DNA of 64,000 nucleotides, taken from Bacteroidales bacterium (GTDB taxonomy: Bacteria; Bacteroidota; Bacteroidia; Bacteroidales; FEN-979). Numbering within the stretch: position 1 is the first letter of the stretch; every line of letters begins with the position of its first letter. Made by a program: the position numbers and the translations under genes. Of the stretch, positions 8,892 to 36,920 are shown piece by piece. The notes under the pieces were generated by a model. That model did not search any database and had not been told where the DNA came from. It worked only from the letters and a program-made list of their open reading frames with translations. The DNA lies in contig OY820914.1 of assembly GCA_963682005.1 (NCBI GenBank), positions 4,964,979-5,028,978 of the forward strand. The letters are read 5' to 3'.

Positions 8892-8905
8892 CCTCTATTA
8901 ATCAC

Positions 8906-12518: not shown

Positions 12519-12538
12519 AAAACTAACTTTAGAATAGA

Positions 12539-14239: not shown

Positions 14240-15042
14240 AATTTATTTTCATCAACGGATGCAGATTTAGGTTGCAGAATATCCTTACCAGTTAATTTGT
14301 ATTCTACTATTCGTTTTTTTGAAATTTCAAGTGCTTTTTCCGATATATCACATCCAACAAAGGTGCATTTGTTTTTTAGGGCTGCTATCGCTGAGGAAGC
14401 ACTACCTAAGAATGGATCGCAAACAGTAAAATTCTTATCTCCACTTGCAAATATCATTGCTTGGAATACTTCAACTGGTTTTTGCGTTGGATACTTGCTC
14501 GCGTGTATTCTTTTGAACCTCCAAACGTCAGGAAAGGTCCTATTTCGTATATGACGGTTATTACCATTAGTAGCAAAGATAATATATTCATGCCGTCGTC
14601 TAAAGTAATGCCCCATCCCAATATTCACCTTATCCCAAGTAATTAAATTTTTTACATCAAAGTACTCTCTTACTAGATGACCAAGGCTAAGCATGGAAAA
14701 TGAATCAAACATGATATAGATGTGTCCTGTCGAGGGTTTAAGGACCCGTTTACATTGTGTTAAAAACAATCTATAGTTCTCAGCCGAATCTTCAAACTCA
14801 CCAAACCATTTTCCGTTCTCCTTGCCTTTGTCTGAATATTGACCAACTATTCTACCTTTACCAAGCATAAGTTTATTGTTCATTCCAGAATAAGCTGGAT
14901 CAGTGACAATAATGTCTACACTTTGATCTGGTAATTTGCTTAGAAACGAGATCGCATCATCTCTAAATATCTTAACAGAGTTATCAGAGGATGAATAATA
15001 TAAGGTTTTTTTTGGGCGTACTTTTGGGCTACTCTTAGTCAT
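14230..15042 (-). CDS. beta-class N6A/N4C DNA methyltransferase
   Basis: Motif IV-like TDPAYSG lies N-terminal to motif I CDPFLGSASS; 10-nt overlap with the endonuclease gene. Confidence 0.85.
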   Translation of the reverse strand: MTKSSPKVRPKKTLYYSSSDNSVKIFRDDAISFLSKLPDQSVDIIVTDPAYSGMNNKLMLGKGRIVGQYSDKGKENGKWFGEFEDSAENYRLFLTQCKRVLKPSTGHIYIMFDSFSMLSLGHLVREYFDVKNLITWDKVNIGMGHYFRRRHEYIIFATNGNNRHIRNRTFPDVWRFKRIHASKYPTQKPVEVFQAMIFASGDKNFTVCDPFLGSASSAIAALKNKCTFVGCDISEKALEISKKRIVEYKLTGKDILQPKSASVDENKFWE

Positions 15043-15400: not shown

Positions 15401-16288
15401 ATGAAAAAGCCAGCTTCTGAACCTAAATCAAAAGCTCAAAATCTAAGCTTTAACGTTTTGAATATTCGTCTTCATTCAAACTCAAGAACGGGCCCCAATG
15501 CTTATTTTGAAATTTTTGAAAAAATTGCTGATTCAAGAACAGTTGTGCAAGTTTCGATTGATAGATTTATAATCTTAAGGACAAAGTTTGTCACAGAAAT
15601 TTCAGGACAAAAGATTATTTATGGTAAAATTGCCGGATTCACAAAAATTTCAGAAACCAATTGGCTAAATATTAATAATTTAGAGGTGGAATCAGTCGTA
15701 ATTCCCGCTGATCATTTTCCTAATATTCGTGAAACAGACTATATATTCATTCCGGCTGCACATAGAATTGCTATTGTTAAATCTCCCCAATTCGGACTCT
15801 ACAATGCAATTAAATTCTTGAACGAATCATTACTAAAAGTAATTGGTAGTGATGAACAAATAGACGTTATTATTGAGCAAAGTTCTGATATTTTCAAGGA
15901 AATTATGGAGGCTCCAATTATCAGGAGTCTTGACATTGAAATATCCTATAGTAATGCTGATATTAAACATGGTGAATATTATAAATGGCTTGATGATGAA
16001 TTAAGGGAAGCCGAAGTCGGAAATATTAAGCTCTCAATCCGGCCAGATCAAAATAATGAAATAAAAATTGATAACAGCCAACTTATCAAGGGCGCATTAA
16101 GCGTTGCGCAAAGTAATGGTTCTGTGTCAGCTACTATTATTACACCTGAGAGAAAGAGAAAAAAAATAATTACAAAGTTTCACCCTGAGATATTTCGGAG
16201 AAAGATAGATCATCCCGATGAAAAAAATCCAAGTATTTTTGCAATGATAATGGAACGGTTTAGAAATAAGTCACATGAAGGAAACTGA
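15401..16288 (+). CDS. hypothetical soluble protein (295 aa), first gene of an unassigned two-gene cassette
   Basis: ORF; no catalytic motif recognised. N-terminal FNVLNIRLHSNS..YFEIFEKI pattern only vaguely reminiscent of a DUF family. Confidence 0.6.
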   Translation: MKKPASEPKSKAQNLSFNVLNIRLHSNSRTGPNAYFEIFEKIADSRTVVQVSIDRFIILRTKFVTEISGQKIIYGKIAGFTKISETNWLNINNLEVESVVIPADHFPNIRETDYIFIPAAHRIAIVKSPQFGLYNAIKFLNESLLKVIGSDEQIDVIIEQSSDIFKEIMEAPIIRSLDIEISYSNADIKHGEYYKWLDDELREAEVGNIKLSIRPDQNNEIKIDNSQLIKGALSVAQSNGSVSATIITPERKRKKIITKFHPEIFRRKIDHPDEKNPSIFAMIMERFRNKSHEGN

Positions 16289-16922
16289 CCCTGTAAAAGC
16301 TAGACATAAAAAGGGCATTATTGGAATCATCCAGTCATATGGATTAAGCAATATTATATGGAGCTTCCCCTCAATTACTAGCTTATTGCTCTCGATTTTG
16401 GTTGTGGGTTTTCTATATTTTAATCAACAGTATAATAGTCATGATATATTAATAAAATTGTCAGACTTATCACTTTTAATATATCCAAGTCTGCTGGGTT
16501 TCAGTTTAGGTGGCTATGCTTTAATTATTGGATTTGGTAATACTTCCTTACTAAAATCAATGACTCGAACCAAAACAGATAAAGATTTCACAATCTTTCA
16601 AAGGATGAACGGGATATTTGCTTTCGGACTACTATTACAAGTGCTCGAACTAATATTCGCCTTTATTATTAAATTTACGAACATTCTCGAAGGATCCAAC
16701 AGAATTTCTTTTTTCCTCACACATCCCAATATTAGCCAGATATTAAATTTAGGTGGCAACTTTCTGCTTTTATGGTGGGCTTGTTGGAGTCTAATTATGA
16801 TCCCTTTCATTGTGTCAAATGTTTTCTTATTCGGACAAATGCACCATCTATACTTGACGAAACAAAGAATGATAGAGGACAGACAAAAGGAGGCTGAGAA
16901 ACAAAAAGAGCCGAAGGCCTAG
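16275..16922 (+). CDS. 4-5 TM membrane protein (215 aa), second gene of the cassette
   Basis: 14-nt overlap with the upstream ORF; hydrophobic segments SLLLSILVVGFLYF, LGFSLGGYALIIGFG, IFAFGLLLQVLELIFAFII, LLLWWACWSLIMIPFIVSNVFLF. Confidence 0.6.
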   Translation: MKETDPVKARHKKGIIGIIQSYGLSNIIWSFPSITSLLLSILVVGFLYFNQQYNSHDILIKLSDLSLLIYPSLLGFSLGGYALIIGFGNTSLLKSMTRTKTDKDFTIFQRMNGIFAFGLLLQVLELIFAFIIKFTNILEGSNRISFFLTHPNISQILNLGGNFLLLWWACWSLIMIPFIVSNVFLFGQMHHLYLTKQRMIEDRQKEAEKQKEPKA

Positions 16923-20553: not shown

Positions 20554-20621
20554 GTAAGCCTTCGGCCACGAGCATCTTGTGTAGTTGATCGATCCTGACC
20601 AACTTGCTGCCAAAAACTTTT

Positions 20622-20903
20622 ATGACTCTTCATGATAAGCGTTCACAGATGATCACGATGGTTGATCTGTGGCAGCAAAGTGGTCTTAGCCAGGCAGAAT
20701 TTTCCCGGGCACAGAATGTCAAACTAGCGACCTTACGTTATTGGATCCATAAGCACCGACATGGCGATACAACCGGCTCAGGGTTTATACAACTGACCGG
20801 GATAACATCACCGGGCATCAGTATTCGTTATCCCAACGGTGTTGAACTGCTTCTACCCGTTCAGGCGCCGGCCGGGTATATAAAAATGCTGATCAGCCTT
20901 TAG
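20622..20903 (+). CDS. tnpA: IS66 accessory protein TnpA (orf1)
   Basis: HTH-like LSQAEFSRAQNVKLATLRYWI; first gene of the IS66 triad. Confidence 0.75.
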   Translation: MTLHDKRSQMITMVDLWQQSGLSQAEFSRAQNVKLATLRYWIHKHRHGDTTGSGFIQLTGITSPGISIRYPNGVELLLPVQAPAGYIKMLISL

Positions 20904-20908
20904 GTCGG

Positions 20909-21277
20909 ATGTTTTCCCTTGGCGCTGCCCGATATTACCTGTACCGGGAACCAACCGATATCCGCAGGAGTTTTGACGGTCTGTGCGGTCTGGTCACAGA
21001 ACGGTTGGGTCAGAATCCCATGAGCGGGGATGTGTTCATCTTCATCAACAAGCCACGTAACCGGATGAAATTGCTCAAATGGGAACCGGGAGGGTTCGTG
21101 CTGTTCTATAAGCGACTTGAACGAGGCACCTTTGAAATTCCCAGTACATCTTTTCAAGGGCTTTCCCATCAGATCGGCTATGGGGAACTGACCATGATGG
21201 TCACTGGTATATCAATGAAATATACAAAAAAAAGAAGGCGTTTTTTGTCACAAAATGATGTTGATAAATATCGCTGA
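20909..21277 (+). CDS. tnpB: IS66 accessory protein TnpB (orf2)
   Basis: YLYREPTDIRRSFDGLCGLV..DVFIFINKPRNRMKLLKWE matches the IS66 Orf2 signature. Confidence 0.85.
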   Translation: MFSLGAARYYLYREPTDIRRSFDGLCGLVTERLGQNPMSGDVFIFINKPRNRMKLLKWEPGGFVLFYKRLERGTFEIPSTSFQGLSHQIGYGELTMMVTGISMKYTKKRRRFLSQNDVDKYR

Positions 21278-21318
21278 AATAGTGATTTAGCAAGAGTTTT
21301 TCATGATAAATTTGAATC

Positions 21319-22779
21319 ATGGAAAGCACAGAAATGGTCACCATCAGTAAAGCAGATTTTGAGGCTCTCAAATCAGAAAATGCCTGGCTCAAACATCAGC
21401 TTTCCGAACTGAAACGTCTGATCTACGGAGCCAAAAGTGAGCGTTTCATTGCCGTCAATCCGGATCAGGCTACCTTGTTCGATCTCCCAGCAGAACAACC
21501 ATCAGAAACGCCCACAGAAGAAATCACCTATACACGCAACAAACCACAACAGGAGAAAAAGCAGCCACTTCGTCTGGAACTGCCTGCTCACCTGGAACGT
21601 CGGGAAGAAATAATCGAGCCGGAAAACCTTCCTGCCAATGCAAAGAAGATTGGTGAAACTGTTACCGAAATTTTGGAATATGAACCGGCCAGCGCTTATG
21701 TTCGTCGCATTGTCCGTCGCAAGTACATTGTGGAGCAGACCGATGAAGAGACCCGCATCGTCATTGCACCGTTACCTACCTTGCCAATACCCAAAGGCAA
21801 TGCCGGAGCCAGCATGATCGCCCATCTTCTGGTGAGCAAATTTGTCGATCATCTTCCGTTCTACCGCCAGGTCCAGATGTTCAAACGCCAGAGGCTCGAA
21901 ATCGCCGAATCGACCATTAACGGTTGGTTCAATGGAGGGTGTGATTTGATAGAGCCGCTATACCAGGCACTGAAGTCAAGAATGTTGGCATCTGATTATC
22001 TCATGGCCGATGAAACCCCGATCCCAGTGCAGACCAAGGACAAGCCCGGGGCCACACACAAAGGTTTTCACTGGGTCTATTACGATCCCGGCAACAAATT
22101 GGTGCTGTTCGATTACCGGAAAACCCGGGGGAAAGAAGGACCCGATGAACTGCTGAAGAACTACGCCGGGTATCTGCAAACCGATGGCTATACTGCCTAC
22201 AACCACCTTGAAAACACAAACAACATCACTCTTCTGGCCTGTATGGCGCATGCCCGGCGCAAGTTCGAGCATGCACAGGAGAATAATCCCACGCTAGCCG
22301 CCCAGGCATTGAAAATGTTCCAGGCCTTGTATGACATTGAACAGGACATCCGGGAAAAAGAACTGGGACCCGACGTCACCCAAATACTGCGTCAGGAAAA
22401 ATCAAAACCTACTCTCGATCGGATGGAAGCCTGGCTTAAGGAACAGATTATTGTCGTACCCCCAAAAAGCGCTATCGGAGTGGCCATTGCATACACGCTC
22501 AATCTCTGGCCTCGGCTGACCCGGTATATCGATGACGGACGCTTCCACATCGACAATAACCTAATCGAAAACAGCATCCGGCCGGTGGCGCTTGGACGCA
22601 AGAACTACCTCTTTGCCGGTTCCCATGAAGCCGCCCAACAAGCAGCTGTGATCTACTCCATCCTGGCTACATGCAAGCTACACCAGGTGGAACCCTTCGC
22701 CTATCTCACCAAAATCTTGTCCATCATCCCCGACTTCCCGGCCAATCAACTGCACACACTTCTGCCAGGGCAAAAATAG
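21319..22779 (+). CDS. tnpC: IS66-family DDE transposase TnpC
   Basis: N-terminal leucine-zipper-like region and YLMADETPIPV, YLQTDGYTAY, NNLIENSIRPVALGRKNYLFAGS motifs. Confidence 0.9.
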   Translation: MESTEMVTISKADFEALKSENAWLKHQLSELKRLIYGAKSERFIAVNPDQATLFDLPAEQPSETPTEEITYTRNKPQQEKKQPLRLELPAHLERREEIIEPENLPANAKKIGETVTEILEYEPASAYVRRIVRRKYIVEQTDEETRIVIAPLPTLPIPKGNAGASMIAHLLVSKFVDHLPFYRQVQMFKRQRLEIAESTINGWFNGGCDLIEPLYQALKSRMLASDYLMADETPIPVQTKDKPGATHKGFHWVYYDPGNKLVLFDYRKTRGKEGPDELLKNYAGYLQTDGYTAYNHLENTNNITLLACMAHARRKFEHAQENNPTLAAQALKMFQALYDIEQDIREKELGPDVTQILRQEKSKPTLDRMEAWLKEQIIVVPPKSAIGVAIAYTLNLWPRLTRYIDDGRFHIDNNLIENSIRPVALGRKNYLFAGSHEAAQQAAVIYSILATCKLHQVEPFAYLTKILSIIPDFPANQLHTLLPGQK

Positions 22780-22832
22780 CAATCATATCTCGTTGGAAAA
22801 AGATGCTCGTGGCCGAAGGGTTACTCTTAATC

Positions 22833-23230
22833 TAGCAGAGCTTAAGGTTCTTCTCGTTGTCATCCGACAAACTCTTGGCTGGGCTGACAGGCGTGGAATG
22901 TATGGAAGAAAAGAAACTGATTGGATTTCTGGTAGCCAACTAAGAGAAAAAACCGGAAGCTCTGAACGAGCTATCACTTCGGCGATAGAAACACTGGTAA
23001 TGAAAAGATTAATCGAAGTTCATGATGATAGGGGACACAAACTTTTATATTCAAAGAATAGACAAGGGAAGATCCGCCTGTATTACAGTCTGCACCCTTC
23101 TGTTTTTAATACTGTGGATAACTCCCTGAAAAGCCCTCTAACTTCTGCAAATTTTGCGGAGGACTTCCGCAAAAATTACGGAACACTTCTGCAAAAAATG
23201 CGGATAACAAAAGAAACTCTACAAAACTAA
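22833..23230 (+). pseudogene. 3' fragment of the rep-like winged-helix gene
   Basis: Continues the 20487 reading frame. The ATG of the tracked 22793 ORF lies just upstream of, and its first codons run through, the IS66 right IR, so it is chimeric. Confidence 0.8.
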
Positions 23231-23240
23231 CTCTTACAAA
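22941..23240 (+). repeat. direct repeat copy 1 (rep 3' end) flanking the Rhs cassette
   Basis: Aligns with 30531-30829; the last ~110 nt are nearly identical and the upstream part is more diverged. Confidence 0.8.
23143..23204 (+). repeat. three 18-bp imperfect palindromes TTCYGCAAAWWWTRCGGA at exact 22-bp spacing (iteron/operator-like)
   Basis: Starts at 23143, 23165 and 23187; the same triplet is conserved in copy 2 at ~30731-30794. Confidence 0.6.
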
Positions 23241-23334: not shown

Positions 23335-23577
23335 TTACGAACTTAGAAATTTAATAGCGACAATAATCATTATTGCTCCAAATGCGATACCAAAACTTGA
23401 AATAGTTCTAAGCATAGGATTTTTTATAGAACGACTTGTGATCAATAATGATGATTCCTCTTTAATTTTCTTATCAATTTTCCAATGCAAGTAAGCAGAC
23501 AACGAAACTATTATTAAACCTATTGCTAATCCTAAGAGAGGTTGTATATGATAAGCTATGTATCCAATCATTTTCAT
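23335..23577 (-). CDS. small 2-TM membrane protein, candidate immunity protein (80 aa)
   Basis: Paralog of the 87-aa ORF (IQPLLGLAIGLIIVSL vs WQPLSGLIIGLLLVTL); downstream of the rhs toxin. Confidence 0.55.
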   Translation of the reverse strand: MKMIGYIAYHIQPLLGLAIGLIIVSLSAYLHWKIDKKIKEESSLLITSRSIKNPMLRTISSFGIAFGAIMIIVAIKFLSS

Positions 23578-23583
23578 AAATTC

Positions 23584-23847
23584 TTATAGAACTCCTAAAT
23601 AAAGAAGTGCTAAAACAATCCATAACCCACCTATCATAGGAATGAAACTAATTAAAACATTATACAAACCATTTGCGGACTTTTCACTCATAAATTGATT
23701 TCTGAAAATATGCTTTGAAATCCATTCAACTGGTTTTTTTCTCCAACGTGTATAAAGAAAGCAAAACAGAGTTACTAATAGTAGCCCAATTATTAGACCT
23801 GATAATGGTTGCCAATATTTTATTACATATAACATAAAATTATTCAT
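23584..23847 (-). CDS. small 2-TM membrane protein, candidate immunity protein (87 aa)
   Basis: See the paralog above; 6-nt spacing. Confidence 0.55.
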   Translation of the reverse strand: MNNFMLYVIKYWQPLSGLIIGLLLVTLFCFLYTRWRKKPVEWISKHIFRNQFMSEKSANGLYNVLISFIPMIGGLWIVLALLYLGVL

Positions 23848-23874
23848 GATATTTATTTTATAATATTTTATTTA

Positions 23875-24399
23875 TCATTGCCCTAGTATTTTAGTTCTAT
23901 ACGTACCTTCAAGTATCAGCCTGGCAAGATCATCCTCAACTTTTATGTTTGGGTTTATTCTCAATATCTCTTTCATAATAGCTTGTAGATCTTTAGAATT
24001 GAAGTGACCATAAGGTATAAGATACCTCACAAAAATACCCTTGGGTTCTTTGTAGTCAAATCCAAGATAGTTAGTATATGGAGTTTTCTTTTGTTTAACC
24101 GATACAAAGTCTAATATCTCTCCTGATTTTGCACCATTGAAATAACTAATTATAGTACTATCTTTAAACTCAATACGATCATAAAGAATAGTCCAAACAT
24201 CTAACATTAATTTAACCACCCATAGAACTAAAAGAACTATCCAAAATTCTTGATTCTTTAAAGTAGTCATTATTCTGAAATTATGCATTAGCAGAAGAAG
24301 ACAAATCGACATTACAATTGCCCAGGGCAATGTACTTTTGAATACTATTTTTTTATCTACTCTAAATATTTTATCTGGCAATGTTTTTTGTGTTTTCAT
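23875..24399 (-). CDS. 2-TM membrane protein with cytosolic domain, candidate cognate immunity protein (174 aa)
   Basis: Starts 9 nt after the rhs stop; hydrophobic helices WAIVMSICLLLLM and FWIVLLVLWVVKLML. Confidence 0.55.
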   Translation of the reverse strand: MKTQKTLPDKIFRVDKKIVFKSTLPWAIVMSICLLLLMHNFRIMTTLKNQEFWIVLLVLWVVKLMLDVWTILYDRIEFKDSTIISYFNGAKSGEILDFVSVKQKKTPYTNYLGFDYKEPKGIFVRYLIPYGHFNSKDLQAIMKEILRINPNIKVEDDLARLILEGTYRTKILGQ

Positions 24400-24408
24400 A
24401 TTTAATGT

Positions 24409-27400
24409 TTATTTCTTCTTGTTAGTTCCAGAACTAATAATACTCATTGGTGCTTCTACCGTCCAGCCAATTTTGCTTAATCCATATTGTTGGGCAGCGT
24501 ATGTACCAAGGTTTAATGTACTGCCAGCAAAGCTACCAACCCATGAACCAAATCCCGAACCCAATATTGAACCAGCAACTTTTACTGGATTTACACTATG
24601 ATCCCCAGTAGCTACTTGTGTAGATAAATTAGTTGCACCAGCTATTCCCATAGCGAATTTTATGCTTATATCTGGTCCTGTCATTGCTCCACCAGCATAA
24701 CTAAGACCTACAATTTTAGCATAATCACCAAACGAAGTTTGTTTATTTTGCATTTGATCTTCCAATATCTGACTACCAACATTGAATGTTGTATTTATTG
24801 TTCCTCTAACTACGGCTTGTGAATTAAATAATGTGTTAGCTACTGTACTTGCAACACTGCTCCCTGCAATCATAGCTCCACCTACTGCAGTTGCTCCACC
24901 AACCACTCCAATGGCTGCTCCCGTGGCATATGGGTGATCCATAGCCATCTGCCAACCACCTCCCATATATTGGGCCGCTTGTCCAACTTCTCCTGAAAAA
25001 TTATTCCATGATTGTGTACCAGACAAGTATTCTCCAAACCATTTTCCACTCGGATCACTTAGTATAATCGGATTGTTTCTGGCATAACTATAACTATTTA
25101 ACTGTTGTGGATCATTTAAAAATTTATCTGGATTCCAGAACACCGGATCCTCTGAAATAAACCTCCCAGCCGTGCTTTGATGATAACGGGCGTTTAGATA
25201 GTTTAAGGAAGTGTCTGGGTCATAATGTTGACCGATGTATTGTTTCTGATTCGTGTGGCTCCCAGAGGAGATTCTTTGTGAACCAAAGGGGTAGTAATCG
25301 AGTAATTCTACTTGTCCTCCATTTGAATCTGAAACGACATTGGTTGAACCAAGATGGTCTGGGTGGATATAGTATGGAGTAACGACAGAATTAGCTGTTT
25401 CAATGGTTGACACTAATTGATTACCCGCATATATGTTCTTGGTCTTTTTGGATCCTCCATAGTTGTAATACTGATTTGGATATTCTGTTGTCAGAGTGCC
25501 ATTACTAGATAATACCCTATTACCTTGTTCGTCGTAAAGGTACTCTCGAGTAAATGTTCCGTTAGTGGTTTCAGTCAGTTGATTTTTGTAATTCCAGGTG
25601 TTGGTGAGGGTACCGTCGTCAGTATTGTTACCATTGTGATCGTAGGTGTTTGTGACACTGTTAATTGAAGTGGCAGCGTGGGGGTTAGCGTAGTTGGTGC
25701 CACTGTTTCCTGCGTAAGTATAACTTCCCACTGGACCTGAAGTGATATTTCCAATTGCGTTGTAGGTAAAATTTTGAGTGTAAGGAGTCTGACCAAATGG
25801 CACATCGGTGATAGTGGCAGAAGTCAGACGATTTAGATCGTCATAGGTATAATCGGCTGTCTTGGATCCGCTTGTGCTTGAATCATCCACGATTTCAGTA
25901 ATGTTGCCATCAGCATCATACTCGTATGTGGTCTTTTGAAGACTTGTTGGTACTTGGTTGGTCGTTGATTTGTCAGTTACTCTGTATAAATTATTTGGGT
26001 CGTATGTATTCGTAGTCGTTACTCTATTGGCATAATTTATTTCTGTTGGTTGGTCAGTCGGCGCATAATCAAAATTCGAAATAACATCGGTGAAAGATCC
26101 TCCGCTTTCTTTATATTCTATTTTTTCCAGTAACCCAGCCGAATTGTAAACATAAAGAACTTGAGCATTGTCGGGATAAGTAATTACTAGCATATTACTC
26201 TGGCGATCATGAGTGTATGAAGTGGTGTAAATATTTTTGGTGACAGTTTTTTCCTCACTTGCGACATTCCCATCTGCGTCATATGTGTAATCCGTTTCCA
26301 CTCCACTTAGCATAACCGCGGAACATAGTTTTCCTATACCGTCTGAACATGAATCATAAGTATAGATAATATCTGTGCCAGTTGTTCCTGTAGAATCTTC
26401 AGTTAGTTTTCTGTTTACATCATCATAGGTATAGTCCACCGTATCGCCGTTAGGATTTATGCTTTCCGTCAAATTACCTGAATCATCATAGGTATATGCC
26501 CATGTTCCATAAGTTGCATCATTTTGCGCATGAAGATCTTCAGCCGTTAAACGATGTCCCAAATTATCATAGGTAAAATTCCGGACATTGCCAAGCGCGT
26601 CAGTTGTATTTATTAGATTGCCATTTAGATTCCAAGTGTAGTACGTGGAGTAAGTATAAGAGCCAGTTCTTTCGTCAACTCTCACCAAATTTTTATACGC
26701 ATCGTAGTAATAATTTTTGACTTTTCCACGTGGGTCACTCACGTCAATTTCCCATGGAGTGTAAGAATAAGCGGTAACACCTGACGCGTTGGTCAATGTA
26801 TGAATACGCTGCACGGGATCATAGGCGTATGTCGTATATAATGCTGTGGTTGTAGTTGGAGAAGTCTTGGATGATCCACTCCCTGTATATGGTAAAGATT
26901 CTTTTTGTACCAAACCAAGATTATTGTAAACAGTGTCTTTGACATTAAAGTTGCCAGAAGTTTCTGCCTCTTTTCTCTCTTGAATTAAACGTCCAAGCCC
27001 ATCAAAATATTGATAAGTATTAGCTGTGGTTGAAGAATTAAGATAGTTAACTTTTTGTACAGAGACTGCATTTGAAGTATCTGTATAGACATAAGCAGTT
27101 TTAGCGTCCAAAGTTGAAGGTGATGTTAGATCAGGAATTTTTTCGGTTAGCACTCGTCCAAGCCCATCGTAAGTTGTCTCTTTCGTTAACCCATTTGGAT
27201 CAGTAGTATCTATCACTTTGCCAGTTGAATAGTCATAGGTATATTCTGTGCTATTTGAAAGGGGATCGGTTATTGTGGTTGGGTAAAGGTGATATGTATC
27301 GTAAGAATAGGATGTTGTTTTTCCTCGTTCGTCAGTGGAAGTAATGGGAATACCATAGGTTGTATAGTATGATTTTTGAGTATTAACATTACGTGTCACA

Positions 27401-30400
27401 GAAGCCATTTTTTCAATTTCAGTTGGATTCCCTGCGCCGGTGGTACCAAATGTAAGTTCGTCATAATACGTTCTTGTATCCTGAATTGTTGTCGCGTTTT
27501 GGTCTTGGATAATATCATCGGAGAGTAAACCGATAACATTTTCACCGTCAGAGGCGTAAGAGAAAGACTCCGTTAACATATCATTCCCTGTGTCGGCAAA
27601 TGATCCATCACTACTTCCCGTTACTTCTCCCCAATCAATTTTTTGAGTTAAATTGCCATTAGTATCGTCATAGGTATATTCTTGTGCCGTGTCTTTGTGG
27701 TTATTAGTGCCATCGTAGGTAAGTGTAGTGGTGCGAGTAAGTTTTACAAAATCATGTCCTGTACCAATGTTGTATGAATCCCATTTATTTATTATGTCAG
27801 CATACAAATTATCAGCACCGTCATATTGTTCGACACGATATGGTTTTCCAATTTTTGCGTACGAATCGCTGTATTCACCTAGCGAAGAATTTGTACCATC
27901 TCCTTGATGAAAATATGTTTTTTTTACGTTTCCAACATCATCTGTCACAGAAGTTGAAGCAAAACCTGCAAACTTGCGAGTAAGATAATCATCAAAATAA
28001 TATTTACCTCCTTGGTAAGAATAATTATTAGTTTCCGAATTTCCTAAACCATCATTATTGGTGATCTGAGAAACAACATCTATGGACATAGGTAAATTTG
28101 GATTTAGGAGGTTACTCGATCCATCTTTGAATAACTGTGTTGCTTTGTAAGTTATTTGAGTATTACCACCTTCGGGATATGTAATTTGAGTCAAGTTATT
28201 CACTCTGGAATTTGTCGTATTATTCAAATACACGTAATGTAATCCATCACTGCCTGCTCTAACCAGGTCCACTAAATTATCTCCATTAACATCAATTAAC
28301 TGGAGGCCATGATTTTGATAGTTACTTTGGATAAAAAACTCTTTGTTTCCAGATGAATCTACCTTGTCCGGCATCGTCCAAGTGGAAGAAACATCTGTCC
28401 ATCCAGAACCATTGTTTAAGTAAATTTTAGGAGCATTGATGGAACATGGGACAGCAGTAGGATAAGCAAAATCATTGGCACACACGAAATCAGGTAATCC
28501 ATCGCCATTGATATCTGTCATTCTTACGCCATAATCTCTGTTTGGGGGACCAACCACAAATTGCATCGGAACAGATGCCGACCAAGTAGAATCATAAGTC
28601 CAACCAGAACCGTTGTTTAAATACACATAATGCAATTCGTCATTGCCAGCTCGTACAAGATCAGCTAAATTATCTCCATTGACATCGATTAACTGGAGAC
28701 CATAAACTTGATAATTGCTGATTACAAAATATTCTTTGTTCCCAGATGAATCTATCTTGTCCGGCATCGTCCAAGTGGAAGAAACATCTGTCCATCCAGA
28801 ACCATTGTTTAAGTAAATTTTGGGATCGTTAATATGACATTGAGAAGGAGCACCACCAGTTGGAATATTATTCGCACAAACGAAATCAGGTAGTCCATCC
28901 CCGTTGATGTCTGCCGTTCTAACTCCCTGATCTCTGAAATTGCTACCTGTAAGCAGGAATTGCATTGGAACAGCCGAAGACCATGTGGAATTATAAGTCC
29001 AACCAGAACCGTTGTTTAAATACACATAATGCAATCCATCATTACCGGCTCGTACGAGGTCAGTCAAATTATCTCCATTGACATCGATTAATTCAAGACC
29101 TTGGTTTTGATAGGAACTATTTATAAAATATTCCTTATTCCCCGATGAATCAACTTTGTCCGGCATCGTCCAGGTAGAAGAAACATCCGTCCAGCCAGAG
29201 CCAGTATTTAAATAAATTTTGGGAGCATTGATGGAACATGGGACAGCAGCAGGATAAGCAAAATTATTGGCACATATGAAATCAGGCAGTCCATCTCCGT
29301 TGATGTCTGCCGTTCTTGTACCATAATCCTTGGTGGGAATACCAAGTAAAAACTGCAACGGAACAGCCAAGGACCAGGTGGAGTCATAAGTCCAGTTTGC
29401 CGTTGACGTTTTATAATCAAAATCTGTAGCGGGAAGAACAGTAACATTGTTTGACCCATCCTGACCTGATTCAATTATCGTCTCCAAAAGAGAACCGGTG
29501 CCATTGTCGGCTGTGGTATAAGTAAAATCATATTTTTCTGCCCAGACACTATTTATTTTGGTATTGATTTCACTAATTACATAATTTGATTTAACCGAAA
29601 ACCCAGTAGAATAGGAAATTGGACCGCCTGTTCGACTAGCGGTCGTAAAATTAACTTCAAAAATTCCATCAGTAGTTCCATTCCCGGTATAAACTATTTG
29701 TAATGGATATATCTGACCTGCGTCTTTGTAGTAGGTATAAGAAATATAATTATCGTTAGTATCTCTCACCTCTTCCAGCATCCATTTATAAATATGAGAC
29801 GAATTATTTGGATCATCTTGCCTGGCTTGGGCATTGGCTCCAAAAATATATTGAGTGCCGTCTTTACTTGTAACTACCCAACCACTTCCTGATTTTTCGT
29901 ATTTAATAAAATCACCCAATTCATCCTTGGCTCTGTAATTTGTGGAATCAAGGGCAATTAATTCTCCTGAAAGAGATGAAGAATAATAGTCTTCGGAGAA
30001 AAGCTCTTGGCTTCCTGTTTTATTAATTCTCTCTATACTCGGAATATCTATTGACCAACCAGATCCGATAACTGAATCCAAAACAGAATTGGAACTATTG
30101 TACATTAAAGTTACATCGGGAGTCATTTTATTTCTTCCTGGTGGCACGTTAATGGAATATTTATAAATCATGGCACCAGTAGAATTATCAACATCAGTGG
30201 TAAGACGAGCTTTTTTAGTAGTATTACTATTTAAAATTGGATTTTCTTCAAAATCTTCAGTCAAGGTTTCTAGGTTTTGTTCAATTTGAGGTCCTGATTG
30301 AATATTTGTTTCACCATTATTAACAACTTGGTTGCCTTGATCTATGGTTTCTTCTTCCGCAAATACTTTGACTATAGGATAAATTATAATAAAAAAAGCC

Positions 30401-30471
30401 ACTAAAATAGATAGTGACTGAACCAATGCGCGAACCAAAAAACTTTTTGGTGGCAAAATATTGTTTTTCAT
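24409..30471 (-). CDS. SpvB/TcdB-N + FG-GAP x3 + RHS/YD-repeat polymorphic toxin with glycine-zipper C-terminal domain (2020 aa)
   Basis: N-terminal signal-anchor. GSGWSIDIPSIER (SpvB-like). DINGDGLPDF/VNGDNLxDLV FG-GAP units. Many YD repeats (YTYDxxGN). RHS core end YARNNPIILSDPSGKW, then a 209-aa Gly/Ala-rich tail (24412-25038). Confidence 0.9.
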   Translation of the reverse strand: MKNNILPPKSFLVRALVQSLSILVAFFIIIYPIVKVFAEEETIDQGNQVVNNGETNIQSGPQIEQNLETLTEDFEENPILNSNTTKKARLTTDVDNSTGAMIYKYSINVPPGRNKMTPDVTLMYNSSNSVLDSVIGSGWSIDIPSIERINKTGSQELFSEDYYSSSLSGELIALDSTNYRAKDELGDFIKYEKSGSGWVVTSKDGTQYIFGANAQARQDDPNNSSHIYKWMLEEVRDTNDNYISYTYYKDAGQIYPLQIVYTGNGTTDGIFEVNFTTASRTGGPISYSTGFSVKSNYVISEINTKINSVWAEKYDFTYTTADNGTGSLLETIIESGQDGSNNVTVLPATDFDYKTSTANWTYDSTWSLAVPLQFLLGIPTKDYGTRTADINGDGLPDFICANNFAYPAAVPCSINAPKIYLNTGSGWTDVSSTWTMPDKVDSSGNKEYFINSSYQNQGLELIDVNGDNLTDLVRAGNDGLHYVYLNNGSGWTYNSTWSSAVPMQFLLTGSNFRDQGVRTADINGDGLPDFVCANNIPTGGAPSQCHINDPKIYLNNGSGWTDVSSTWTMPDKIDSSGNKEYFVISNYQVYGLQLIDVNGDNLADLVRAGNDELHYVYLNNGSGWTYDSTWSASVPMQFVVGPPNRDYGVRMTDINGDGLPDFVCANDFAYPTAVPCSINAPKIYLNNGSGWTDVSSTWTMPDKVDSSGNKEFFIQSNYQNHGLQLIDVNGDNLVDLVRAGSDGLHYVYLNNTTNSRVNNLTQITYPEGGNTQITYKATQLFKDGSSNLLNPNLPMSIDVVSQITNNDGLGNSETNNYSYQGGKYYFDDYLTRKFAGFASTSVTDDVGNVKKTYFHQGDGTNSSLGEYSDSYAKIGKPYRVEQYDGADNLYADIINKWDSYNIGTGHDFVKLTRTTTLTYDGTNNHKDTAQEYTYDDTNGNLTQKIDWGEVTGSSDGSFADTGNDMLTESFSYASDGENVIGLLSDDIIQDQNATTIQDTRTYYDELTFGTTGAGNPTEIEKMASVTRNVNTQKSYYTTYGIPITSTDERGKTTSYSYDTYHLYPTTITDPLSNSTEYTYDYSTGKVIDTTDPNGLTKETTYDGLGRVLTEKIPDLTSPSTLDAKTAYVYTDTSNAVSVQKVNYLNSSTTANTYQYFDGLGRLIQERKEAETSGNFNVKDTVYNNLGLVQKESLPYTGSGSSKTSPTTTTALYTTYAYDPVQRIHTLTNASGVTAYSYTPWEIDVSDPRGKVKNYYYDAYKNLVRVDERTGSYTYSTYYTWNLNGNLINTTDALGNVRNFTYDNLGHRLTAEDLHAQNDATYGTWAYTYDDSGNLTESINPNGDTVDYTYDDVNRKLTEDSTGTTGTDIIYTYDSCSDGIGKLCSAVMLSGVETDYTYDADGNVASEEKTVTKNIYTTSYTHDRQSNMLVITYPDNAQVLYVYNSAGLLEKIEYKESGGSFTDVISNFDYAPTDQPTEINYANRVTTTNTYDPNNLYRVTDKSTTNQVPTSLQKTTYEYDADGNITEIVDDSSTSGSKTADYTYDDLNRLTSATITDVPFGQTPYTQNFTYNAIGNITSGPVGSYTYAGNSGTNYANPHAATSINSVTNTYDHNGNNTDDGTLTNTWNYKNQLTETTNGTFTREYLYDEQGNRVLSSNGTLTTEYPNQYYNYGGSKKTKNIYAGNQLVSTIETANSVVTPYYIHPDHLGSTNVVSDSNGGQVELLDYYPFGSQRISSGSHTNQKQYIGQHYDPDTSLNYLNARYHQSTAGRFISEDPVFWNPDKFLNDPQQLNSYSYARNNPIILSDPSGKWFGEYLSGTQSWNNFSGEVGQAAQYMGGGWQMAMDHPYATGAAIGVVGGATAVGGAMIAGSSVASTVANTLFNSQAVVRGTINTTFNVGSQILEDQMQNKQTSFGDYAKIVGLSYAGGAMTGPDISIKFAMGIAGATNLSTQVATGDHSVNPVKVAGSILGSGFGSWVGSFAGSTLNLGTYAAQQYGLSKIGWTVEAPMSIISSGTNKKK

Positions 30472-30530: not shown

Positions 30531-30819
30531 TAGGAGAAAAGACTGGAAGCTCTAAACGTGCATCACTTCTGCAATAAAGACACTGGTAATGAAAAAATTA
30601 ATCGAAGTTAATGATGACAGGGGACACAGACTTTCATATTCCAGGGATCGACAGGGGAAATCCAGGCTCTATTTCAGCCTTACCCCTACTGTCCTAAACC
30701 CTGTGGATAACCCGCTCAAAAGCCCCTTAACTTCCGCAAATTTTGCGGAGGACTACCGCAAAAATTACGGAACACTTCTGCAAAAAATGCGGATAACAAA
30801 AGAAACTCTACAAAATTAA
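30531..30819 (+). pseudogene. truncated, frameshifted second copy of the rep-like gene 3' end (direct repeat copy 2, 30531-30829)
   Basis: 76-aa ORF 30589-30819 is homologous to the C-terminus of the 22833-23230 product. Upstream homology continues to ~30531 with a 1-nt indel. Confidence 0.75.
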
Positions 30820-30979
30820 CTCTTACAAATATAAGCATTAGGCTTATCATCCACCTGACAAATTGACATAATATAAAAACCGGTATAACATTTGAATATT
30901 AGGAGTCCTCTCCTTACCCCAAAGTGCGATGGGTCGATAGGATAGAATATAAATGTTTTATTAACGAATATTAAATACC

Positions 30980-31234
30980 ATGGAAAAAAATCTAAAAAAG
31001 GATGTGACTATAATTGTCAATGGCGAACAAAAAGTGGTCCCAAAAGATGAGATAACCTATGAAGAGGTCGCAACTTTAGCGTTCCCTGATTTCGCAAATC
31101 ATCCAGAGCGAACATACGCCATTACTTATGAACGAGGACAAGGAAATAAACCTCAGGGAATTTTGTCACCTGGGGATAGTGTTAAAGTTAAAGATGGGAT
31201 GATATTTCATGTTAGAATCACTGGCCAGTCATAA
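30980..31234 (+). CDS. ubiquitin-like beta-grasp protein ('multiubiquitin'-type single domain, 84 aa)
   Basis: VTIIVNGEQKVV..ITYEEVATLAF...YAITYERGQGNKPQGILSPGDSVKVKDGMIFHVRITGQS matches the remembered family pattern. Confidence 0.65.
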   Translation: MEKNLKKDVTIIVNGEQKVVPKDEITYEEVATLAFPDFANHPERTYAITYERGQGNKPQGILSPGDSVKVKDGMIFHVRITGQS

Positions 31235-32375
31235 TCCTGACATTGAAAGATTACGGCAAAAAGGATATGCAATATCTTTTGATAGTAACTATTTAGTTAT
31301 CCGTGATATCTCATACTTAGATAATAATAAGAATCTACAACAAGGTGCTATTGTTTCTAAGGTTGTCTTTATTGATAACGAGCATGTCAAACAAGAAGAT
31401 CATCAAATTTTCTTTTGTGGCTCTCATCCCCACCAAGCGGACGGAAATCCAATAAAAAATTTTGGTGGAGGTGAGGTTAACTTGCAATTATCATCACCCG
31501 ATCTAGTTGTTCAAAGATCATTTTCTAATAAACCTGCTGCGGGGTACGAGGATTTCTTTGATAAAATTGAGACATATGTCACAATAATTTCCGGACCGGC
31601 TATGCAACTCTTTGGAGAAGAGGCAAACCCTTTTACCTTCCGCTCAATTCTAGGAACAACTGAGTCAGTTTTTAAATGTCATGACACATTGACTTCTAGA
31701 GCAGAGATAGGTGATTTAGCGCTAAAATTCAAAGACGATGTAATTGCCATAATCGGACTTGGGGGAACAGGTTCATATCTCCTCGATTTTTTAGTTAAAA
31801 CACCTGTTAAAGAAATTCGGGCATTTGATTGCGATAAGTACCATGTACATAATGCTTTTCGTAGTCCCGGAAAACTGGAGATATCAGAACTAGGTAAACC
31901 TAAGACTAACGTCTATCAATCCAGGTATGAAAATTTCAGAAATGGCCTCAGTTTTTATAATAAATATATTCAGTCTGATTCTATGTCGGATTTAGAAGGG
32001 GTAACATTTGCTTTTGTATGTGTAGATAAGGGAACTGCACGCAAAGAGATTTTTGACCTTCTTTTTAAAATGAATATTTCTTTCATTGATGTAGGTATGG
32101 GTCTTGACAGAATGCAAGGAATTCTTTCGGGAATTTTGCGTACTACATATTTCTCAAATGAAACAGCCCAAGAACTAATCAAGAAAAACTATGTCCCGCT
32201 AACTGATATTAATGATGAGGAATATCGTAATAATATTCAGATTTCTGAACTTAATGCTTTAAATGCTTGTATAGCAGTAATCAAGTATAAGAAAATTCGT
32301 GGTTTCTATGTAGAAGATGATTCTTTCCACCAAATGCTTTTTACCATTGATACGCTATCTCACCTTGGAGAATGA
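31209..32375 (+). CDS. ThiF/E1-like adenylyltransferase with an extra ~170-aa N-terminal domain (388 aa)
   Basis: Rossmann IAIIGLGGTGSYLLDFL, FDCDKYHVHNAFRSPG, FVCVDKGTARKEI. 26-nt overlap with the Ubl gene. Confidence 0.75.
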   Translation: MLESLASHNPDIERLRQKGYAISFDSNYLVIRDISYLDNNKNLQQGAIVSKVVFIDNEHVKQEDHQIFFCGSHPHQADGNPIKNFGGGEVNLQLSSPDLVVQRSFSNKPAAGYEDFFDKIETYVTIISGPAMQLFGEEANPFTFRSILGTTESVFKCHDTLTSRAEIGDLALKFKDDVIAIIGLGGTGSYLLDFLVKTPVKEIRAFDCDKYHVHNAFRSPGKLEISELGKPKTNVYQSRYENFRNGLSFYNKYIQSDSMSDLEGVTFAFVCVDKGTARKEIFDLLFKMNISFIDVGMGLDRMQGILSGILRTTYFSNETAQELIKKNYVPLTDINDEEYRNNIQISELNALNACIAVIKYKKIRGFYVEDDSFHQMLFTIDTLSHLGE

Positions 32376-32809
32376 TAAAAAAAATTAAATTAATAAAAGT
32401 TCAATATATCCCAGGTCAACTCGAAGAAGGAACTTTATATCTTTCAGAAGAATATAAGGTTGCAGTTCATTTGTGTCCGTGTGGTTGTGGTAACAAAGTT
32501 GTAACTCCTCTTGGTCCAACTGATTGGTCATTCAAAGAGGTTGATGGTCAACCTTCACTTTATCCTTCAATTGGAAACTGGCAAATACCATGTAGATCCC
32601 ATTATTTTATCATTAACGGGATTATTGAATGGTCATATCAATGGACTAAAGAAGAAATTGAAACAGGAAGAAAAATCGAAGACTTGCAGAGAACACAGTA
32701 CTACAATGATCTGCCTCATTTCCAAAAAAAACAACACTTAATTATTAGAATTTTTAACCGATTAATGAGAATTTTTAAGAACCGAACTAACCAGAGAAAA
32801 AAAGGATGA
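32372..32809 (+). CDS. Cys-rich small protein (DUF6527-like), third gene of the Ubl operon (145 aa)
   Basis: HLCPCGCGNKV ... IPCRSHY Cys/His cluster; 4-nt overlap with the E1 gene. Confidence 0.55.
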   Translation: MIKKIKLIKVQYIPGQLEEGTLYLSEEYKVAVHLCPCGCGNKVVTPLGPTDWSFKEVDGQPSLYPSIGNWQIPCRSHYFIINGIIEWSYQWTKEEIETGRKIEDLQRTQYYNDLPHFQKKQHLIIRIFNRLMRIFKNRTNQRKKG

Positions 32810-35265: not shown

Positions 35266-36699
35266 ATGATACCCACGATGGAATACAAACCCTTGATAAT
35301 CCCAGAATCAAAAAGATGGAAGGGGTTGAAGGTTTTCTGTTATGAATGCGGAACAAGCGTATCAGATATTTGTAAAAGTTCGGGTAACCCGATATCACAA
35401 TGCAAGCATGGAGATCAACATGTATTCAAAGTTGTTGTCCACGTGCCAGGAACTAAAAATCAGAGAAGAACAAAAAAATTAGAAACACGAGATGTAAACG
35501 AAGCGATAGCCCAGGCAATCGAATTTGAGAAAGAAGCCAAGAGCGAAGCCTACGAGAGTCCAAGGAAAAAGATTCAAAAGAAAGAAATAGAAAAGGAAGA
35601 CCTGGATGAAAGCAAGCCGTATCTCTTAATCCATGCGCTTGCCAGATATATAGGCTGGCTAAACAACGAAGGTGTACCGGCACATTTGATAAAGGTAAGG
35701 AGTAGGGAACATATAAAGGATGTAGAACGTGCCCTAAAAAGTCTCATTGAGTGCTTAAAAGATAATGACTACCATCTTCCGACTTTTACGATGGAAGACA
35801 TTAATAATAATATGGTGGGAAAGGTTTTCCTTTTTTTAGAAAAGAGAAGGTTTGCTTCCAGAACATTTAATAAGTACCTCAGTTATTACACCTCTTTCCT
35901 AAGCTGGTATGCCGAGGAATATGATTTCCCCATCCGAAATTATTTTGAAAAAGTCAAAAGGAAGAACTTGAATCCAAAGCCTCAAGCGATAACACTTCCA
36001 GAGTATCAAGCTCTATTGGAAATCATCAACCCCGAGAATGGCATTAAGGAATATAAAAATGGAGTAAAGGAGAAAAGGAATTTCTATCGACCCTGGCTTG
36101 TCGATGGTTTCCGTCTTGCTCTTGAAACAGGAAGACGAAGGGAAGAGATCATAAACTTAAAATGGAACTACATCGAGGAAAGTAATGGCATACCATATAT
36201 AAAGGTAGAGGACTTCAAAGTTAATCGGATTCAAAACCGGCTTTCTGAAGACGAAAAGAAGTTCAACTATATTCCTATCACAGAATCCTTAGCGAAGCTC
36301 CTTAAAGATTTAGGTCAGGACCAATACGCCAACACGGACAATTTTATCTTGGCTCCCGAGATTTCAATAAGTCGTAAAAGGGTGATGGCAGATACTTTGA
36401 GCCGGGGCTTCTCCCATTATTATAACCAGCTTAAAACGGGAAGGAGGCTCACTTTCAAATGTTTAAGAAAAACCTATATAACGAATCTTGAGATTTTCAT
36501 GGGTAGAGGACATACGAGGGATGTTACCGGACATACCAATGATCAAGTGATAGAAAGAAGCTACTTAGACAAGCGAGAGATAGCAAAAGCAGCTCATGGA
36601 TTTCAGGTATTCCCCGATGAACCCCAGCGTAACCAAGAATTAAAGGAGATCAGAGATGAAAGAGAAAAGAACAATGAACCAAAAAGCCTAGAGGTATAA
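35266..36699 (+). CDS. int: tyrosine integrase of the element (477 aa)
   Basis: ETGRRREEI, KCLRKTYIT, TGHTNDQVIERSY catalytic-type motifs; N-terminal Cys/His cluster CYECG..C..C.H; ends 137 nt from tRNA-Leu. Confidence 0.85.
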   Translation: MIPTMEYKPLIIPESKRWKGLKVFCYECGTSVSDICKSSGNPISQCKHGDQHVFKVVVHVPGTKNQRRTKKLETRDVNEAIAQAIEFEKEAKSEAYESPRKKIQKKEIEKEDLDESKPYLLIHALARYIGWLNNEGVPAHLIKVRSREHIKDVERALKSLIECLKDNDYHLPTFTMEDINNNMVGKVFLFLEKRRFASRTFNKYLSYYTSFLSWYAEEYDFPIRNYFEKVKRKNLNPKPQAITLPEYQALLEIINPENGIKEYKNGVKEKRNFYRPWLVDGFRLALETGRRREEIINLKWNYIEESNGIPYIKVEDFKVNRIQNRLSEDEKKFNYIPITESLAKLLKDLGQDQYANTDNFILAPEISISRKRVMADTLSRGFSHYYNQLKTGRRLTFKCLRKTYITNLEIFMGRGHTRDVTGHTNDQVIERSYLDKREIAKAAHGFQVFPDEPQRNQELKEIRDEREKNNEPKSLEV

Positions 36700-36792: not shown

Positions 36793-36833
36793 AAAAAAAT
36801 GCCGAAACGCTTATTTATCTAGCATTTCGGCAT
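36793..36833 (-). terminator. element-encoded terminator for the reconstituted tRNA-Leu
   Basis: ATGCCGAAA (36799-36807) / TTTCGGCAT (36825-36833) followed on the minus strand by T7. Confidence 0.6.
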
Positions 36834-36835
36834 CG

Positions 36836-36920
36836 TACCCGGGGCGGGAATCGAACCCGCACGCCCTCGTCGGGCACAGGATTTTAAGTCCTGCGTGTCT
36901 ACCAGTTCCACCACCCGGGC
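36836..36920 (-). tRNA. tRNA-Leu(UAA)
   Basis: Reverse complement GCCCGGGTGGTGGAACTGGTAGACACGCAGGACTTAAAATCCTGTGCCCGACGAGGGCGTGCGGGTTCGATTCCCGCCCCGGGTA. Long variable arm, anticodon loop CTTAAAA, close to E. coli leuZ. CCA not encoded. Confidence 0.95.

Follow-up and report, generated by a model that had tools for sequence, protein, structure and literature searches.

What does a cocoon-forming toxin carry when its C-terminal tail matches no catalogued toxin family, and on which part of a rival cell might such a tail act? This question is raised by an RHS polymorphic toxin gene encoding 2020 aa (24409..30471, minus strand; an uninterrupted open reading frame, ORF, with an ATG start) in a 64,000-nt stretch of a Bacteroidales genome (assembly GCA_963682005.1, contig OY820914.1, positions 4,964,979 to 5,028,978). 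This whole stretch is called the window below, and all coordinates refer to it. We concluded that the sequence most likely represents a Sec-exported RHS polymorphic toxin of the 'TcdB/TcaC' architectural class in a self-contained cassette, and that the target of its uncatalogued tail is probably the membrane of rival bacteria. By analogy with the ionophores of contact-dependent inhibition (CDI), with the toxins EsxX and TelE, and with the glycine zipper of Tde1, we further lean, with moderate confidence, towards a membrane-depolarising payload for this Sec-exported toxin, whose cassette resides on an apparently mobilisable element of ~34 kb.

The architecture of the protein agreed with the original prediction of a fused TcB-TcC-like cocoon: the domain matches fit a layout of signal, SpvB, propeller, RHS shell, core terminus, and variable tail, and every motif quoted in that prediction was found where it had been placed. 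At the N-terminus, residues 1-38 (MKNN...YPIVKVFA, followed by EEE; 30358..30471, this and all following parts of the gene being on the minus strand) were assigned as a Sec signal sequence from hydropathy and from the corresponding site of relatives. The Kyte-Doolittle peak is 2.48 over residues 10-40, and the relatives share a proline and then a VFA or ILA site ahead of E, S, or Q, as read from the sequences. The segment had been described as a signal-anchor; its hydrophobic signal character was borne out, but it looks like a cleavable Sec signal peptide, with the probable cut between YPIVKVFA and EEE, and an uncleaved anchor is less likely. The SpvB-like region of TcB N-terminal type (residues ~95-372; 29356..30189) gave two Pfam SpvB stretches (E 2.8e-13) and contains GSGWSIDIPSIER at residues 136-148 (nt 30028-30066).

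It is followed by three tandem FG-GAP modules of ~131-133 aa (28219..29313), each with two Ca-binding-like blades. At the DNA level this region is a tandem repeat of 3 x ~395 nt (28220-29311), in which 300-nt units are spaced by 393-399 nt; at the protein level it gave FG-GAP_3 (E 8.6e-17, six stretches) and FG-GAP (E 8.9e-12) matches, with three copies of DINGDGLPDF (residues 389, 521, and 653) and three of DVNGDNL (463, 596, and 727). These six blade-like units predict a six-bladed beta-propeller, and six is also the blade number of the TcB propeller. The long YD/RHS repeat shell that would form the cocoon (25297..28218) was recognised by Pfam RHS_repeat (E 1.3e-23, six stretches) and DUF6443 and by NCBIfam YD_repeat_2x (E 1.4e-13), and it leads into the Rhs-associated core (25039..25296), matched by Rhs_assc_core (TIGR03696) at residues 1726-1809 (E 2e-16). 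The core terminus reads FISEDP...NSYSYARNNPIILSDPSGKW and includes YARNNPIILSDPSGKW at residues 1796-1811, ending in DPSGKW. Both predicted aspartyl autoprotease residues, D1775 in FISEDP and D1806 in DPSGKW, are present, presumably as equivalents of the catalytic aspartate pair known from TccC3 and Rhs proteins; the Asp of the DPxGxW motif is nearly invariant among 47 relatives. Self-cleavage is predicted at or near W1811.

As to delivery, the Pfam scan found no PAAR domain in the protein, and PAAR, VgrG, type VI secretion system (T6SS), type IX secretion system (T9SS), and TcA families were absent from the window ORFs scanned, a set that comprised all but a few ORFs in the host-chromosome part of the window. 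The absence of T6SS genes nearby had been part of the original prediction, which had also called for a search for T6SS, T9SS, and TcA-like partners. A T6SS Rhs effector was rejected on the lack of PAAR or prePAAR and of any T6SS family among these ORFs, together with the N-terminal signal found instead; a T9SS cargo was rejected since the C-terminus, in place of a sorting domain, is a toxin module with no Pfam or NCBIfam match. TcdB_toxin_midN was not reported for the 2020-aa protein (Pfam, E<=0.1); the records of its relatives P0005 and P0025 do list this domain.

The tail comprises the 209 residues after DPSGKW (nt 24412-25038) and is rich in Gly, Ala, and Ser (16%, 12%, and 10.5%), as had been noted. 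It gave no Pfam, NCBIfam, or PADLOC match at E<0.1, only chance-level PDB matches by single sequence or profile, and no tblastn match among plasmids. Run exhaustively against 1.84 billion protein representatives, phmmer returned 55 cluster matches (E<=1e-3, best E 6e-59), which were RHS-linked relatives only, and these searches agree with the earlier expectation that the tail is no known enzymatic toxin. A word-indexed homology search gave three matches with the tail and three with its profile, the candidates being crowded by low-complexity words. The majority of the 55 phmmer matches cover only tail residues 1-62, and the view of the tail as a single domain had to be given up: it consists of two modules, residues 1812-1873 and 1874-2020.

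The first module (residues 1812-1873; 24853..25038), delimited by phmmer, clustering, and hydropathy, runs from an amphipathic helix through an AMDHPYATGA motif to a GxxxGxxxG helix. This glycine-zipper helix is charge-free across the family, and here it contains AAIGVVGGATAVGGAMIAGS (residues 1852-1871), the only stretch of the tail that reaches transmembrane grade (Kyte-Doolittle 1.64; cut-off >=1.6). Beyond residue 62, the sequences of module-bearing relatives cluster into at least five unrelated C-terminal types, and a Pfam scan of 47 such proteins placed Tox-REase-7 (E 2e-16) and DUF4258 (four members) after the module. Since the first zipper run precedes nuclease toxins too, it is not evidence about the activity of the payload at 1874-2020. 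We consider residues 1812-1873 to be probably a generic membrane-entry module. Known families did not account for it: pre-toxin families including PT-TG were absent from the 47 linker-bearing proteins (Pfam, E<=1), and a PT-TG pre-toxin domain was rejected for want of any Pfam match between core and toxin in these proteins. Likewise, no Pfam glycine-zipper or colicin pore-forming family was found in the tail (E<=0.1) or among the 47 relatives (E<=1), and a colicin-type pore domain was rejected on the lack of a family hidden Markov model (HMM) match.

The second, specific module (residues 1874-2020, ~147 aa, ending in KKK; 24412..24852) belongs to a rare family with no library match, which numbers 10 clusters at the 50% identity level among the 1.84 billion representatives, all of them on RHS cores. 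It is kept as a unit, at 27-56% identity, in intact RHS proteins of 2000-2600 aa from several sources. Charged residues (DEKR) make up 10% of the module compared with 18% of the protein body, and G, A, S, and T together make up 45%. The motif GLSYAGGAMTG occupies residues 1922-1932 and GSILGSGFGSWVGSFAGS residues 1967-1984, the latter containing an extended glycine zipper, G1967-x3-G-x3-G-x3-G-x3-G1983 (24523..24573), at whose positions close relatives retain G, A, or S. The published zipper definition, (G/A/S)xxxGxxxG or GxxxGxxx(G/S/T) (PMC12744356), is matched at six positions, including this run. The zipper runs of the original prediction are therefore present, but only in part specific to the payload, the first of them lying in the module common to unrelated toxins.

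Could such runs simply follow from composition? A tail that is low-complexity and largely disordered, with GxxxG runs arising from composition and unrelated membrane ORFs downstream, would fit the finding that a small-xxx-small chain of the observed length occurs in 31% of shuffles, and also the low confidence of structure prediction: AlphaFold2, given a 10-sequence alignment, modelled an all-helical tail with a mean predicted local distance difference test score (pLDDT) of only 46. However, five glycines in i+4 register, as between G1967 and G1983, occur in no more than 1.4% of shuffles that preserve composition; distant relatives can be aligned along the entire tail and share invariant positions with it, phmmer E-values going down to 6e-59; and the family of the downstream ORF tracks the tail type across loci. 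We regard the disordered reading as disfavoured and very improbable.

Conservation within the module does not point to catalysis. In the alignment of its family (A2), the invariant columns are N, Y, and Q, with E195 nearly invariant; the conserved polar positions are N86, Y106, N137, Q141, and E195. None of the invariant columns of this alignment is H, C, D, K, or R, and thus there is no catalytic-looking residue set. The payload is predicted to be amphipathic and not hydrophobic to transmembrane grade. The last residues of most such tails form a short polybasic stretch (KKK, KKGK, or KKKRK; A2, L016, L018) preceded by varying sequence, and this end could serve as a membrane-surface anchor or topology determinant. 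A Foldseek search with the tail model gave assorted membrane helical proteins as its top matches, which we treated as meaningless.

The gene next to the toxin gave the module its link to the membrane. An ORF of 174 aa (23875..24399, minus strand), starting 9 nt past the toxin stop codon and predicted to encode two N-terminal transmembrane (TM) helices and a ~100-aa domain, is the candidate for the cognate immunity gene. In four other loci, L003 (from a Saccharibacteria metagenome-assembled genome, MAG), L022, L023, and L024, the genes directly after this tail form a single family, whose proteins are 194-203 aa long and have two to three TM helices. Of the 417 window ORFs, an HMM built from those four loci matched the 174-aa ORF alone (E 5e-8; the runner-up had 0.29), and hhalign of the four-locus family against it gave a probability of 83% (E 8e-6). 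Pairwise BLASTP between the 174-aa ORF and the L003 ORF was not significant, the relation being visible at the profile level only. Across 24 loci, members of this immunity family stand only beside this tail type or beside a divergent G/A/S-rich tail (L016): they were found in five intact loci of other organisms compared with none of the 16 loci with other tail types. In those 16 loci, where the first downstream ORF spans 83-151 aa, the protein lacks TM helices in 13 cases and has two in two cases (L014 and L019), and one locus has no such ORF. Thus, the link of residues 1874-2020 to the membrane comes from a conserved membrane-embedded partner, most other tail types being followed by soluble proteins, and a conserved module that co-occurs with a partner gene of its own, in tight linkage, is what marks a toxin-immunity pair.

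The fold of the partner is less clear. Single-sequence AlphaFold2 modelling of the 174-aa protein gave pLDDT 65-79 for the TM hairpin and <50 for the soluble part (48 overall), and matching of its profile to the PDB was at chance level. A bPH domain appeared weakly in the family, as bPH_4 in one of five members (E 0.006) and bPH_8 in one of five (E 0.11), with no PDB or NCBIfam support for this fold in the 174-aa protein.

Two further genes follow on the same strand, each predicted to encode a two-TM hairpin: an 87-aa ORF (23584..23847) and an 80-aa ORF (23335..23577). The first is 47% identical (E 2e-27) and the second 34% identical (E 2e-13) to the ORF right after the L014 tail, and the two are paralogues (32% identity, E 7e-8). 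The L014 tail, also low in charge, falls in a different cluster from residues 1874-2020, so we read the 87- and 80-aa ORFs as orphan immunity genes against a second tail type. The cassette, as predicted from these relationships, is one toxin gene with its cognate immunity gene and two orphan immunity genes, and the orphans point to a second membrane-linked toxin type.

From these features we propose the following sequence of events. The protein would be exported by Sec and then fold into the cocoon, where self-cleavage at DPSGKW would leave residues 1812-2020 enclosed. After release, the shared 62-aa module would drive insertion into the cytoplasmic membrane of the target; in the nuclease-tailed relatives, it would carry the toxin across. 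The cargo of the present protein would be the ~147-aa, low-charge, helical domain with its extended glycine zipper and polybasic C-terminus, which may oligomerise in the membrane through the zipper and dissipate the membrane potential as an ionophore or small pore. The 174-aa two-TM protein would neutralise the payload inside the membranes of producer cells and their kin.

A number of observations weigh against a depolarising payload. Two loci, L021 and L018, carry this tail type without the immunity gene, and the toxin gene of L018 is interrupted. Residues 1874-2020 are only moderately hydrophobic (family mean Kyte-Doolittle 0.4-1.0), and they have no detectable sequence similarity to known pore formers or ionophores in Pfam, the PDB, or phmmer searches. 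Both AlphaFold2 models are of low confidence (pLDDT 46 for the tail, 48 for the immunity protein), and Foldseek of the tail model against the PDB gave no significant match (best E 0.9). In a diderm host such as this one, Sec reaches the periplasm only, and no outer-membrane export route or TcA-like partner was found in the window. Moreover, membrane-located immunity is also known for toxins with periplasmic or lipid-linked targets; since it serves other envelope toxins too, the partner protein is no proof of ionophore action.

This last point leads directly to an alternative in which the 147-aa module forms no pore and exerts its effect at the membrane or in the periplasm, for example by sequestering or modifying a lipid-linked cell-wall precursor or a membrane protein; the membrane-anchored partner would then give protection at the site of attack. 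A membrane-anchored immunity protein fits any envelope target, the amphipathic module falls short of transmembrane-grade hydrophobicity, and the conserved N86, Y106, N137, Q141, and E195 could form a binding site. On the other hand, no similarity to enzymatic or lipid II-targeting families emerged from Pfam, NCBIfam, PDB, or phmmer searches, the invariant columns lack H, C, D, K, and R, and the composition and extended zipper fit known depolarising toxins better (PMC12744356, PMC11630599). We judge a non-pore envelope toxin to be unlikely, while giving it real weight.

Alternatively, the entire 209-aa tail might be an insertion or translocation device or an anchor whose true cargo has been lost, leaving an 'empty' RHS protein that is carried passively. 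The strongest TM-like element does sit in the shared module, the diderm host has no visible export route, the cassette is bracketed by repeats beside an IS66 element, and an interrupted relative (L018) exists. Against this, the 147-aa module is conserved as a unit in intact RHS proteins of several sources, a dedicated and tightly linked partner gene co-occurs with it, and the ORF in the window is intact, with an identical copy on an independent Logan contig; what lies on that contig is the 3' part of the toxin gene, identical in sequence, together with downstream ORFs of 174, 87, and 78 aa. An empty RHS protein thus appears distinctly improbable. For the membrane-depolarising payload that we prefer, the original suggestion of a membrane-inserting cargo remains plausible in view of the conserved membrane-embedded partner, but the argument from the zippers has been weakened, as the strongest zipper is not specific to the payload and the payload itself is amphipathic.

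Where do such proteins occur? Over its entire length, the protein shares 41% identity with P0009 (2114 aa); compared with RHS genes in MAG loci of Paceibacteria and Saccharibacteria, the identity is 39-50%. The linker motif was found in six GTDB representative genomes, five of which are MAGs of Patescibacteria (candidate phyla radiation, CPR). Upstream of the relatives we saw no partner gene that is conserved. As they share this kind of signal sequence, the family appears to depend on Sec alone. Almost nothing was found in the literature that we searched on RHS toxins of Patescibacteria.

Two of the relatives showed structures of their own. In the metagenomic locus L018 (5090-5110), the RHS frame stops inside the shared linker, directly after ...NYLYNNSAT, and the tail continues as a separate ORF from MDHPYATGA with no immunity gene downstream; this is probably a decaying or mis-assembled copy. 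In L021 (11767-12424), P0005 is the closest full-length relative with this tail (56% identity in the tail) and is not followed by the immunity family; a convergent multi-TM ORF of 125 aa lies on the opposite strand and contains a 'TFTLN' motif reminiscent of that family.

There is also a broader proposal, which we put forward tentatively and regard as possible but doubtful: the 62-aa segment would be an undescribed, portable membrane-entry module of a largely CPR-associated family of Sec-secreted RHS toxins, serving nucleases and ionophores alike with no injection machine, and the window would have captured the transfer of one such cassette, together with its cognate and orphan immunity genes, onto a mobilisable element in a diderm Bacteroidales. 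With five of the six genomes being Patescibacteria MAGs, the cassette may also bear on how the ultra-small Patescibacteria episymbionts attack or compete, and it may record an exchange of weapons between Patescibacteria and Bacteroidales on mobile elements.

The setting of the cassette suggests an acquired unit. Direct repeats of 268 nt with 85% identity, the left copy at 22973..23240 and the right copy at 30562..30829 (both on the plus strand), bracket the four genes exactly, and their last ~110 nt are nearly identical. Both copies correspond to the 3' part of a Phage_rep_O-like winged-helix ORF, the left overlapping the 3' part of such an ORF at 22793-23230 and the right overlapping an ORF at 30589-30819. 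These bracketing repeats, both derived from a Phage_rep_O-like ORF, suggest that the cassette came in when related elements recombined. A complete IS66-family element (20604-22779, plus strand; orf1-like gene, TnpB_IS66, and a 486-aa transposase; 49% guanine plus cytosine, GC) abuts the left repeat and seems to truncate the Rep_O-like ORF; megablast found no near-identical copy of it in the plasmid collection.

On a larger scale, 63-nt direct repeats of the 3' part of tRNA-Leu(taa), 98% identical (2769-2831 and 36831-36893), delimit an integrative element of ~34 kb that holds the cassette, with a tyrosine integrase (35266-36699) adjoining the tRNA; two tRNAs were the only Rfam matches in the window. 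The GC content is 43.6% in the flanking chromosome, 36-37% in the island, and 38.6% in the toxin gene, compared with 28.9% in the immunity genes (23335-24399), which lies far below the island and the host as well. The flanking chromosome encodes PFOR, MutS2, SppA, mmdA, and glycine-lipid-type acyltransferases, and the MutS beside the island shares 77-83% identity with its counterparts in MAGs of Bacteroidales and Bacteroidetes. This MutS comparison assigned the host to the Bacteroidales, and the other flanking genes fit.

Besides the toxin cassette, the island cargo includes a T4 coupling protein, a relaxase, ArdC, RadC, two integrases, and the IS66 element. The mobilisation genes (6124-9889, plus strand) encode a VirD4/TraG-type coupling protein, at most 28% identical to plasmid sequences by tblastn, a MobA/VirD2 relaxase, and an ArdC protein with a zincin peptidase domain; a full type IV secretion system was not seen in the visible part of the element, which therefore looks mobilisable and not self-transmissible. 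A defence cluster follows (9927-15042, minus strand). It encodes an AAA_13 ATPase of 886 aa, for which PADLOC reported the candidate system PDC-S06 (E 4e-175), as well as an AlwI-type restriction endonuclease and a DNA methylase of N6/N4 type. Between these restriction-modification genes and RadC, a 295-aa DUF4747 protein and an overlapping 215-aa ORF without family match (15401-16922, plus strand) may form another two-gene module of defence or toxin-antitoxin-like type. Divergent from the RHS gene, an operon for Multi_ubiq (84 aa), a DUF6791-ThiF E1-like protein (388 aa), and DUF6527 (145 aa) (30980-32809, plus strand) looks like a ubiquitin-like conjugation or defence system; the DUF6791-ThiF protein gave weak PADLOC 'E1-E2' matches.

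To our knowledge, few of the well-known RHS cocoon toxins carry a membrane-active payload. By the libraries and literature that we searched, the payload family and its immunity family are new, and so is the post-cleavage glycine-zipper module common to nuclease-type and membrane-type cargos; this 62-aa module is a concrete candidate for the entry step of RHS toxins that use Sec only. Compared with Tc toxins, the present locus has no TcA-like partner in the window and the protein gave no TcdB_toxin_midN match. TccC3 and TccC5 are ADP-ribosyltransferases, whereas the payload described here looks non-enzymatic. Tse4 and Ssp6 are small T6SS ion-selective pore toxins, rich in glycine zippers and depolarising, with inner-membrane immunity. 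The present payload resembles them in its zippers, in its membrane-located immunity partner, and, by prediction, in its depolarising action; they are stand-alone T6SS cargo, whereas no homology to them was detected here and the window has no T6SS genes.

The general layout is not new. TcdB/TcaC-type RHS toxins and TcB-TcC share with the present protein a signal peptide, an SpvB region, an integrin-like/FG-GAP propeller, a YD/RHS shell, the DPxG motif of the Rhs core, a C-terminal toxin that varies, and an immunity gene next to it. The same layout was described by Zhang et al. (2012) as the Sec-dependent 'TcdB/TcaC' polymorphic-toxin route, with Bacteroidetes included (PMC3482391, Table 1), and the kind of system is thus already known. 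Compared with this class, the present family has an additional conserved module of ~62 aa after the cleavage motif.

A counterpart to this additional module is found in the T6SS effector Tde1, whose glycine zipper permeabilises the target membrane and is needed to deliver its DNase across it (Ali et al. 2023, PMC10240207). A zipper beside a toxin domain parallels the 62-aa module ahead of Tox-REase-7 and DUF4258 tails; however, the Tde1 zipper is N-terminal, whereas the module described here follows the Rhs cleavage site and forms its own sequence family. Among the type VII secretion system (T7SS) LXG toxins TelE, EsxX, and TspA (Alcock et al. 2025, PMC12744356), TelE and EsxX have C-terminal extended glycine zippers, EsxX depolarising and TelE destabilising the membrane. 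The likeness lies in an extended zipper near the C-terminus of an uncatalogued toxin domain and, for EsxX, in polytopic membrane immunity, provided there by the membrane proteins ExiCD, and in the occurrence of orphan immunity genes. Unlike these toxins, the present protein has no LXG domain, T7SS, or detectable homology to them, and a soluble cytoplasmic immunity pair was not seen.

The CDI ionophores of the CdiA-CT EC93 family combine an entry domain with a helical ionophore domain containing GxxxGxxxG, and their immunity proteins are two-helix proteins of 72-100 aa (Halvorsen et al. 2024, PMC11630599). The scaffold here is an RHS cocoon, in contrast to the CdiA filament of a type V secretion system, and no receptor is known here. 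Exhaustive phmmer showed no sequence similarity between them, and of the immunity proteins the cognate one described here is the larger, as it combines two to three TM helices with a soluble domain. Nevertheless, both have a bipartite helical C-terminus made of an entry part and a GxxxGxxxG part, both are paired with small hydrophobic, membrane-embedded immunity proteins, and the orphan hairpins of 80-87 aa match CdiI in size and topology.

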